In this document: positions 512 through 3,026 of the stretch, in pieces | How the letters are laid out: each line of letters opens with the position of its first letter | How positions within the stretch are numbered: the first letter of the stretch is position 1 | Source of the DNA: Escherichia coli | GTDB taxonomy: Bacteria; Pseudomonadota; Gammaproteobacteria; Enterobacterales; Enterobacteriaceae | NCBI RefSeq assembly: GCF_030013205.1 | Contig: NZ_CP122648.1 | Reading direction: 5' to 3' (one strand) | Length of the DNA stretch: 64,000 nt | Notes under the pieces: generated by a model | What the model was told of the DNA's origin: nothing | What the model saw: only the letters and a program-made list of their open reading frames with translations | Databases searched by the model: none | Program-made: the position numbers and the translations under genes

Positions 512-754
512 TTACATTGTGTCTGGTTCTTCCGGCCACACAATATCCGGTGCTACTGATGTATCAACACGGTTCAGCAACACCCGATACTTTTTCCAGG
601 CTTCCAGCAACGAGTTTTCTTCCTCCGTTGCGATCTCCAGATCTACAGCATCCTGAAGTGGCGCAATATGCTCACTGGCTACCTGCATCAGGCTGTTTTT
701 TGTTTCTTCCGCCTCCCGGATCCGGAACAGTTTTTCTGCTTCTGCATCTTTCAC
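512..754 (-). pseudogene. Tail fiber assembly protein (Tfa), C-terminal fragment
   Basis: 80-aa ORF ending …[26 protein letters not shown], typical Tfa C-terminus; far shorter than intact Tfa (about 190 aa). Confidence 0.5.
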
Positions 755-858
755 CCAGGCTGTGCCGTTCCACTTCTGAAACTCCCCTTCCGGCGATAAC
801 CAGGTAACATTTTCCGGTAACGGACCGAGTTCAGAAATAAATAACGCGTCCCCTGACG

Positions 859-1710
859 CTACGTCATAAACCGTTTTGCAGATTTGTCAAAAGTCTGCCC
901 CTGCATCAGGGCATAACCAGACGGAACGGTATTTGATGGCCACGGGATTGGTGCACCGACTGGGTAGCTTTCTGGTGGAAGATTTTTCGAGGTATAAACT
1001 TCTGCCCAGTCTTCCTCAAAACCATAACCGTCTCTTGAAGAACGGTAGAACAGACCACCATTTCTGTAATGCGCCTTCATCTGCAGGGTCCGGCAACTTC
1101 CGACTCCGGTATAGAAGTTAACCAGAATATAGCTGTTGCCTGTCCGGGTGACATTGTATGCACCAGATTTAGCATTCCACGGAACGCCTCCCTCTGACTC
1201 TGCGTGCACACCAGACGATCCAAGAGCAAAAGCAGAGACATCTGCAGCGGACAGCCTGATGTCTGATTTCAATGCCTTACCATTCACCTTACGACCAGAT
1301 GGAACCCGGTCATTTGCATTATCATTCACCGCTTTCACCGCCATTGGTGTTGCCGCCAGCGATTCACTGTCACTGTCCGTGGCACTGCTGAGCTGTACCA
1401 CCCCCTTTCTCGTCGTGCTCGCATCCTCTAGCGCCACGGCAGATGCAATATCCTCTGCCCGTTTTGCTGCTGTCTCGGCACGCGTTGCTGCAGATTCCGA
1501 CGTACTTTTGCTCTGAGCTGCCGCTGTCGCACTACCAGCTGCCTCTGTCGCCTTCGTGGATGCCGTCGTGGCACTGACCTTCGCCTCTGACGCCTGTCTT
1601 ACCGCCTCATCTTTTGAAGCAGACGCCGATGATGCTGATGACGCCGCCGAACTGGCGGACGATGCGGCTGCCGTTTCTGAGGCTCCTGCGCGGGTTGCCA
1701 CTTCCGTCAA
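859..1710 (-). pseudogene. Side tail fiber protein (Stf-like), C-terminal fragment
   Basis: Ala/Ser-rich repeat region then tail-fiber C-terminal domain; no ATG (TTG at ORF start); overlaps the J fragment in another frame. Confidence 0.55.
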
Positions 1711-2582
1711 CCAGGCTTATCAGCGTGGTGCCGGAGGATGGCAGCGTGATTTCACGGTCGAGCGTCAGCGTCCGGGTCTGGCTGTTCACCGCCAGCACGC
1801 GCCCGCCGGTGCTGATACCGGCATAGTCATCATCGCAGATTTCAATGACATCGCCCGGTACATGGCGAAGCCCTTCGGCACCCACGCTGAAGTCCACGGT
1901 CTGCGTTTCCAGCAGTTCTGTTTTAATCAGCCACAGCCCGGCGCGGTGCGCCTGCCCCCGGCTGGTACAGCCAAACGCATCCATCTTCGTGACGTTACGA
2001 CCGTAACGGGCAATGGCCTGCGAGTCCTCCACAAGCTCTGTCGCCGTCTCCTGGCCGTTATCCGGGTCAATCCAGTTCACTTCAACGGCATTATGGCGGT
2101 CTTTCAGGGCGCTGAAGCTGTAGCGGAATGGTGCGCCATCATCCGGCATCACCACATTACTGCGGTTATAGGTCCACACCTTATCCGACGGTCGGTCCTG
2201 CACGAACGTCAGCGTCTGCCCGTTCCATACCGGCATACAGCGCATCGCCGAGCAGAAATCACTGAGCACATCCCAGGCCTTGCGCTGTGTGGTCAGGTAC
2301 GCATTACAGGCGATGCGCGGCTCCGTGCCGCCAAAGCCGTCCGGCACCGACTGGTCGCAGTACTGGCCGATGACATACAGCGCCCATTTGTCCACATCCG
2401 CCGCACCAAGACGTTTCACTGTCCAGCACCGGCGTACTGTTCAGCAGCACGCTTTTTAATCCCTCCACCGGACCTTCTATCGGCCCTTCGCTGATGGCAT
2501 CAATCACACTCAGCAACTGCGTGGATTTCAGATTGTCCTTCGCTTCTCGCGGGGTATGCCCCTTACTGCTGCCTTTACCCAT
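1607..2582 (-). pseudogene. Host specificity protein J (lambda J-like), internally deleted and frameshifted
   Basis: 2304-2582 encodes the lambda J N-terminus (MGKGSSKGHTPREAKDNLKSTQLLSVIDAISEGPIEG…); 1607-2419 in another frame encodes a central J segment (KRLGAADVDKWALYVIGQYCDQSVPDGF…[11 protein letters not shown]). Confidence 0.8.
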
Positions 2583-2642
2583 TCGTCATGCTCCATAAAC
2601 GACAAAACCGCCCGCAGGCGGTTTCACATAAAACATGTTGTA

Positions 2643-3026
2643 TCAGCGACCAATCACCACAACCTGACCACCATCCCCTTCGTCTGCCGTGCTGATCTCC
2701 TGAGAAACCACCCGCGACCCCACGCGCATTTCACCGTACAGAACGGGCAGAACATTGCCCTGGGCAACCATGTTATCCAGTGAGGAGAAATACGTATTCT
2801 GTTTGCCGTTATCCGTTGTCTGTGTACGGGGGGTTCTGGGTTTAGGGGCCAGCATCTGTGCAACACCGCCAAGCGTCATACTGGCACCGAGAGAAAACAG
2901 CAGATTGCTCGCCATAATTCCTACCCCCGGCATCCATATAGCAACCGCCATAACAGCAGCGCCCAGCACAGCCTGAAACACTCCGCCACTTTTAGCCCCA
3001 GCCAGACGCGGCACGATGTGGATCAC
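2643..3026 (-). pseudogene. Tail assembly protein I (lambda I-like), C-terminal part only
   Basis: …IHIVPRLAGAKSGGVFQ…KQNTYFSSLDNMVAQGNVLPVLYGEMRVGSRVVSQEISTADEGDGGQVVVIGR matches the lambda I C-terminus; N-terminal half missing, GTG at ORF start. Confidence 0.75.

Follow-up and report, generated by a model that had tools for sequence, protein, structure and literature searches.

The stretch of DNA analysed here comprises 64,000 nucleotides of Escherichia coli (contig NZ_CP122648.1) and is referred to in its entirety as the window. Positions ~4–20,537 of the window are a defective lambdoid prophage in the tRNA-Ser gene serT, with hyaA on one side and yccA on the other. The attR-proximal late region of the ancestor would have displayed the order holin, lysis, terminase, head, tail, I, J, lom, stf and tfa. 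This end of the prophage appears to have been worn to 2.6 kb by four collinear deletions, a reading to which we assign a probability of roughly 90%. What is left are five collinear lambdoid tail pieces on the minus strand at positions 512–3112, where the reading frame changes at each junction. In the order I′, J′ N-terminus, J′ centre, stf′ and tfa′ the frames are −2, −2, −3, −1 and −3.

The extents of the pieces were determined with tblastn, in which lambda proteins and the intact proteins encoded by a full-length prophage in E. coli strain ETEC1738 were compared with window positions 1–3600, alongside a Pfam profile search. The tblastn E-values of the fragments range from 1e-14 to 1e-161 and are so low that chance is not an issue. 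The pieces are as follows.

2643–3112, minus strand: I′ pseudogene, without the first ~44 of 200 codons (annotation of strain EC416); ~156 codons, or about three quarters, are kept.
2416–2582, minus strand: J′ N-terminal fragment, J codons 1–55 (alignment to PhiR49_1*, tblastn and the list of open reading frames).
1695–2417, minus strand: J′ central fragment, J codons 289–530, with a Phage-tail_3 domain (PF13550, E-value 6e-42).
877–1696, minus strand: stf′ pseudogene, internal codons 370–642 of 826, contiguous and out of frame with both neighbours.
512–877, minus strand: tfa′ pseudogene, Tfa codons 74–194 and the stop codon, i.e. 121 codons; the N-terminal 73 codons are deleted.

Lambda I amino acid positions 54–223 align with window positions 3125–2646 in frame −2 (E-value 6e-77), and the true homology starts at residue ~58. 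The native start and the N-terminal domain of a full-length I gene are absent, and the Lambda_tail_I profile (PF06805) is matched at positions 46–83 of 83 only. The open reading frame with a start codon has 127 aa, beginning with a GTG at 3026, and is shorter than the homology. The I–J intergenic spacer at 2583–2642 is intact.

Lambda J positions 1–56 are found at 2582–2415 in frame −2 (E-value 1e-28), and positions 289–530 at 2416–1691 in frame −3, with 97.5% identity and an E-value of 2e-161. A 92 aa open reading frame at 2304–2582 consists of the 55 J codons followed by 37 out-of-frame codons, and the frame of the J centre continues to a stop codon at 1607. A continuous J (TipJ) open reading frame of ~1,130–1,165 aa that includes the C-terminal receptor-binding part is not present in the window; J is represented by codons 1–55 and 289–530 in different frames.

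The ETEC1738 Stf sequence, positions 370–642, aligns at 1695–877 in frame −1 with 99.6% identity, and the matches to lambda in this piece are to orf-401 (305–392) and orf-314 (69–99). The Pfam domains displayed are Phage_fiber_2, gp37_C(-like) and the start of Collar. A 283 aa open reading frame covers the piece, which lacks the last 184 codons of stf, and no open reading frame here contains both the N-terminal tail-attachment domain and the C-terminal tip.

The tfa′ sequence at 877–515 (frame −3) is 100% identical to ETEC1738 Tfa positions 74–194 and 90% identical to lambda Tfa positions 74–191. The Caudo_TAP domain (PF02413) is present (E-value 4e-44, profile positions 3–130 of 131). A full-length tfa with its native start, translationally coupled to stf, is not found, and there is an in-frame stop codon at 889–887. 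The only tfa′ open reading frame with a start codon encodes 80 aa from a GTG at 754. A small RNA inside tfa′ (Rfam IS009, RF02111, at 555–753 on the minus strand, 223 bits, full model) was rejected as a feature specific to the remnant. In lambda, ETEC1738 and strain H3, where tfa is intact, the IS009 model likewise falls on the 3′ portion of its coding region; the family overlies coding sequence of tfa.

In the annotation by the Prokaryotic Genome Annotation Pipeline (PGAP), four of the five pieces are partial pseudogenes, and the 92 aa open reading frame at the J N-terminus is an ordinary coding sequence. A sequence-only reading of the region had placed tail-gene fragments at 512–3026. The fragments are real, but the upper bound should be ~3112. 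Its description of J, in which about 55 codons are followed by a central segment in another frame and then, again out of frame, by stf, is exact, as shown by tblastn and the open reading frames. Gene I is truncated at its 5′ end as had been claimed, but only the first quarter is gone rather than the half, since homology extends to 3112. The stf segment does follow J out of frame, but it is internal to the gene and not the C-terminal domain that had been proposed. The tfa remnant had been taken as the last 80 codons, whereas the homology spans 121. The sizes given for I and tfa were too short because the open reading frames had been counted from the first start codon. Alignment to lambda I, J, Stf and Tfa, which had been suggested as the check, located the five pieces and the frame jumps.

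The junctions between the pieces were mapped to the nucleotide by a three-way comparison with the closest intact allele on each side. Relative to ETEC1738 there are four deletions (D1–D4), with microhomologies of 9, 2, 2 and 1 bp.

3104–3112: D1, holin/I; 9-bp microhomology GCTGGTATC; holin codon 115 is joined to I codon 45.
2416–2417: D2, within J; 698 bp lost, codon 55/56 joined to codon 288/289 at a 2-bp GA, frame shifted.
1695–1696: D3, J codon 530 to stf codon 369/370; ~3.75 kb lost, i.e. the J C-terminus, lom and the stf N-terminus.
877: D4, stf codon 642 to tfa codon 74; 774 bp lost (stf C-terminus and tfa N-terminus), 1-bp A.

The D1 interval is 53,605 bp long in ETEC1738. Of this, ~35 kb is a P2-like insert, which the ancestor need not have carried, and lambdoid genes for lysis, head and tail account for at least ~17 kb. 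At D3 the 2-bp AA lies within a 14-bp patch in which 10 of 14 positions are similar. Since stf and tfa are read in different frames, D4 joins them out of frame. The gene on the upstream side of D1 is the following.

3082–3447, minus strand: Phage_holin_8 holin (Pfam PF16931, E-value 7e-21), cut by D1.

Of its residues, 115 are identical to the 129 aa intact protein of ETEC1738, and they are followed by six foreign residues from the I′ DNA. The holin is an orphan, since the window has lost the second holin and the GH108 lysozyme that accompany it in the full-length prophage. A further deletion within stf (818 + 54 bp), which a comparison with phage 2H10 had indicated, was rejected because the whole 820-bp piece is contiguous in the intact ETEC1738 stf with 99.88% identity; the difference from 2H10 is natural stf mosaicism.

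RecA-independent illegitimate recombination or replication slippage may have made the deletions, as would be expected from established knowledge of such processes, because the joined sequences share only 1–9 bp; site-specific or homologous exchange does not fit. The deletions were probably sequential. The five pieces would be non-coding relics, presumably incapable of building a tail structure, because the reading frame shifts at every junction.

The full-length counterpart was found by a search with the stf piece, which gave an 818-bp contiguous match of 99.9% inside the intact stf of ETEC1738. The ETEC1738 prophage (NZ_CP122768.1, positions 3369186–3451131) is at the same site, where tfa is followed by tRNA-Ser and hyaA, and it has the same att repeat. 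The two elements have the same protein accessions for their early and regulatory genes (Q, RusA, ParDE, the methyltransferase and DUF1883), and the nucleotide identity is 99.9%–100% in holin, stf, tfa and attR. Unlike the window element, the ETEC1738 prophage has complete lysis, head and tail genes and has kept its immunity region. It carries an intact holin, the second holin, the GH108 lysozyme and a complete lambda-type terminase-head-tail module, with intact K, I, J, lom, stf (826 aa) and tfa (194 aa). It also differs by the P2-like prophage, which is inserted between the lysis genes and the terminase. This insert (~3393000–3428700; L012/L014) carries an HxsABCD radical-SAM cluster, and the large terminase gene of ETEC1738 has an internal stop codon. 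All blocks shared by the window and ETEC1738 are collinear and in one orientation.

1–877: 100% identity to ETEC1738; tRNA-Ser, attR and tfa′.
877–1696: 99.88% over 820 bp, without gaps; stf′.
1691–2417: 95.9%; J′ centre.
2416–3112: 94.1%; I′ and the J′ N-terminus.
3101–14664: 99.85%; holin and early region.
14661–31405: 99.5%; remainder of the prophage and chromosome.

Several points weigh against the proposal of four deletions from an ETEC1738-like parent. The I and J pieces have only 94%–96% identity to the ETEC1738 I–J region, although the flanks have 99.9%–100%. The positions of D1–D3 are thus mapped on a composite of two references. Intermediates with only some of the junctions have not been found among 5,426 complete genomes or among assemblies with the 92 aa open reading frame. 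Lastly, the frameshifts are the sole ground on which a loss of function is proposed. With respect to the first point, the porcine strain EC416 has a prophage at potB whose intact I–J region is 99.7%–99.9% identical to the window pieces (99.86% over 697 bp in the I piece region and 99.7% at the nt level in the J centre). The direct ancestor therefore carried an I–J allele other than that of ETEC1738, i.e. one of the EC416 type. The presence of this allele is ordinary module swapping between lambdoid prophages.

The assignment of the element to a lambdoid prophage is based on its gene order and its boundaries. The order int-exo...P-Q-holin...I-J-stf-tfa is displayed by the PGAP annotation of identical strains and by the collinearity with ETEC1738, and att repeats at the tRNA gene bound the integrated element.

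4–103 and 20435–20537: att repeat of 103 bp, the copies 91% identical; flanks the element between tRNA-Ser/hyaA and yccA.
Within 1–103, plus strand: 3′ part of tRNA-Ser (serT); the start of the gene precedes the window and its end is at ~63 (PGAP tRNA-Ser at L001 11976–12063).

ARAGORN called no tRNA here because the window start cuts serT; an Rfam tRNA match is found at the equivalent position in ETEC1738. The first 6 kb of the window are 100% identical to 17 porcine E. coli chromosomes, which are from enterotoxigenic E. coli (ETEC) isolates and O139:H1 edema-disease strains. The O139:H1 carriers are of sequence type 1 (ST1), the edema-disease clone (PMC8798679). In the PGAP annotation of strain K_EC180, tRNA-Ser adjoins hyaA. 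On the minus strand, tRNA-Ser is followed by a partial tail fibre assembly protein, a partial “phage tail protein”, a partial J, the 92 aa “phage tail protein”, a partial tail assembly protein and a putative holin. Upstream of these are a DNA methyltransferase, Q, RusA, ParDE, P, a partial O-like gene, DicB, exonuclease and integrase, and then yccA. Thus the tail fragments are the attR-proximal end of a lambdoid prophage. The particle-essential genes lost relative to ETEC1738 are terminase, portal, head, tail tube, tape measure, K/L/M, lom and endolysin, and the immunity region is lost as well.

A 3.1-kb query spanning all junctions reaches at least 80% coverage in just 17 of the 5,426 complete genomes. 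When D1, D2, D3 and D4 were probed separately, each was matched in one piece and at full length in these 17 porcine genomes (O139:H1/ETEC) and in no others, so that all four junctions co-occur. Two-piece probe matches in LR-64-1, APEC_AN-25, LR-46 and CFSAN061772 were considered as intermediates and rejected; their spacing differs and they represent other deletions. The 92 aa open reading frame, which spans D2, was looked up exactly and is listed in 57 blocks of public assemblies. Among the places listed (24 contigs) all are collinear with the window, with at least 99.9% identity over 8.5 kb and identical geometry. A scan of metagenomes for the D3 junction gave zero matches. One single nucleotide polymorphism in the D4 probe divides the 17 genomes into groups of seven and ten, and the junctions therefore predate this split. 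The junctions are a fixed haplotype of one porcine isolate set. They are not an assembly artefact, because 17 complete genomes, independent of one another, and additional draft assemblies show the same structure.

The four separate gaps cannot be explained by a single simple deletion. The claim that several independent deletions shaped this end of the element holds in so far as there are four separate deletions, each mapped to the nucleotide and with its own microhomology; their independence in time is only inferred. A stepwise origin is the parsimonious interpretation, and it is favoured because the same element carries other piecemeal lesions. The alternative is a single complex event, i.e. 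serial template switching during replication or repair, that would have created all four junctions together so that the deletions are not independent. The constant company of the junctions, both in the 17 complete genomes and in the listed assemblies with the 92 aa open reading frame, is in line with such an event, as is the lack of any metagenomic contig carrying the D3 junction alone, and very short microhomology at all junctions is also seen with template switching. However the carriers are one narrow porcine set (the typed members being O139:H1 ST1; PMC8798679), in which co-occurrence is expected even if sequential events were fixed before diversification. Unrelated further lesions are present elsewhere in the element, and other cryptic prophages have one or two such deletions apiece. 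A single complex event is thus considered unlikely.

A second alternative, which appears somewhat less probable again, is that the region is a patchwork from recombination among co-resident lambdoid prophages, where I–J was imported rather than left behind by deletion. The I and J fragments are indeed closer to the EC416 potB prophage than to the ETEC1738 serT prophage, while the flanking sequences follow ETEC1738. But the pieces lie in exactly the order and orientation of an intact tail module, and the junctions have 1–9 bp of microhomology, in contrast to the long homology typical of exchange between prophages. A homologous swap of the I–J allele before the deletions accounts for the identity pattern, and a second mechanism is not needed.

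That the pieces are an intact or domesticated short tail module, e.g. a selected receptor-binding or chaperone fragment, is highly improbable: tfa′ does span nearly the entire Caudo_TAP profile and the 80 aa (GTG start) and 283 aa open reading frames persist, but the native start is missing from every fragment, none is in frame with its neighbour, the partner genes K, L, M, H, V, lom, head and terminase are all gone, J is without its C-terminal receptor-binding part and stf without both ends, and a relative has full-length versions at the same locus. The stricter form, intact genes of an unusual short module, which the sequence-only reading had named as its possible refutation, is excluded because each piece is truncated and frame-shifted relative to the same-site genes of ETEC1738.

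The further lesions of the element include a fifth deletion relative to ETEC1738.

14661–14664: fifth deletion, 2,561 bp, with an overlap of ~4 bp at the junction.

This deletion removes the immunity region (racR, ydaS, ydaT, DUF1391 and ydfB) and the first 182 codons of an O-like gene with a DnaT domain. The exonuclease gene (exo, 16516–18984) has one internal stop codon in the window. The integrase (19274–20290) is a full 339 aa open reading frame with no stop codon in the window, whereas the K_EC180 annotation calls both int and exo frameshifted. Given the att repeats, the sequence suggests that excision may still be possible. An IS1 insertion sequence (IS) is located at the equivalent of window ~6900–6914 in K_EC180 only and is absent from the window, which therefore derives from a different member of the clade. 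The coordinates of the K_EC180 annotation shift by 776 bp beyond ~6900, and these cannot be transferred with a fixed offset.

The region at window 3448–6157 resembles the stx2e locus of phage P27 (NC_003356), which has the same order from methyltransferase to Phage_holin_8, and the holin nt sequences are 84.6% identical. P27 differs in that its methylase and holin are separated by tRNA-Ile, tRNA-Arg and stxA2e/stxB2e. At this location the window has instead a 92 aa hypothetical gene and a DUF1883 gene, and it is free of tRNA genes there. The lysis genes downstream of the holin are intact in P27, unlike the window. Outside of the prophage, a PyrD leader (RF02373) is found at 47358–47431 on the minus strand, upstream of pyrD, and is an ordinary chromosomal feature.

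Other remnants surfaced in the searches: a Qin-type prophage (CFSAN061772), a DLP12-type prophage (H3), a J–tfa fusion (Ec-U11) and a holin–E–I arrangement (E1620). Each has its own junctions, and none of the four junctions of the window is shared by the remnants in H3, Ec-U11, CFSAN061772 and E1620. Cryptic prophages of E. coli commonly show truncated I, J and stf beside tfa. The K-12-type Qin and DLP12 elements resemble the window element in that they are defective and lambdoid, with attR-proximal truncated I, J and stf beside tfa and pin. They differ in integration site and in junctions, and tfa is usually full length there. Rac and e14 are likewise cryptic prophages with stf, tfa and J remnants.

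Some breakpoints nearly coincide. The Qin-type remnant of CFSAN061772 (L008 6484–6488) has a separate 617-bp deletion in J whose left end is the same nucleotide as the left end of D2, and this is the only coincidence between its J′ and the window. The shared left end follows ...GGACAGTGA, i.e. ...GGACA[G/C]TGA, at J codon 55/56 (window 2416–2418), and the right end is 83 bp upstream of the right end in the window. The Qin-type deletion is independent, because its J allele is only ~93% identical. The coincidence at the left end could be a hotspot or chance. The E1620 holin (L009 6384–6411), which is 84% identical to that of the window, is independently truncated within a few bp of D1 (window 3104–3112) and is joined to the lambda D–E spacer and an intact major capsid gene. 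Both the D1 and the E1620 holin breakpoints are at GCTGGT, a Chi-like motif (GCTGGTGG). In the Qin-type (L008 ~7477–7483) and DLP12-type (L006 ~8008–8016) remnants, J′ breaks after ...CAGCATGTA and continues with TGGTGCT; the break after ...GTGCAGCATGTA in these two is at J nt ~1776. This suggests either a shared junction that was modified later in one of them or an exchange between cryptic prophages. The coincidences in general might reflect hotspots or exchange between remnants. It is doubtful, on this evidence, that some of the breakpoints are recurrent fragile sites in the decay of lambdoid prophages rather than random positions.

An E. coli prophage normally has several defects (PMC2669165). 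In O157 Sakai the lambdoid prophages each carry multiple defects, which include frameshifts, deletions and IS insertions (Asadulghani et al. 2009, PMC2669165). In those prophages excision, replication and packaging were tested experimentally (PMC2669165), while the window element is known from its sequence. The Stx2e prophage of the same O139:H1 strains has also been reported to have lost late genes (PMC8798679).

The erosion of the serT prophage is ordinary cryptic-prophage decay, already annotated mostly as partial pseudogenes, and does not depart from the known pattern. It matters little beyond annotation hygiene, i.e. the region should be read as pseudogene debris and not as tail genes or a novel short module. 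Nevertheless, with the junctions placed to the nucleotide and a full-length prophage known from that locus, the region serves as a tidy worked example of prophage erosion through microhomology. Breakpoints that nearly coincide in unrelated remnants offer a minor lead for the study of deletion hotspots, and the four junctions are specific markers of one porcine E. coli group, whose typed members are O139:H1 ST1.

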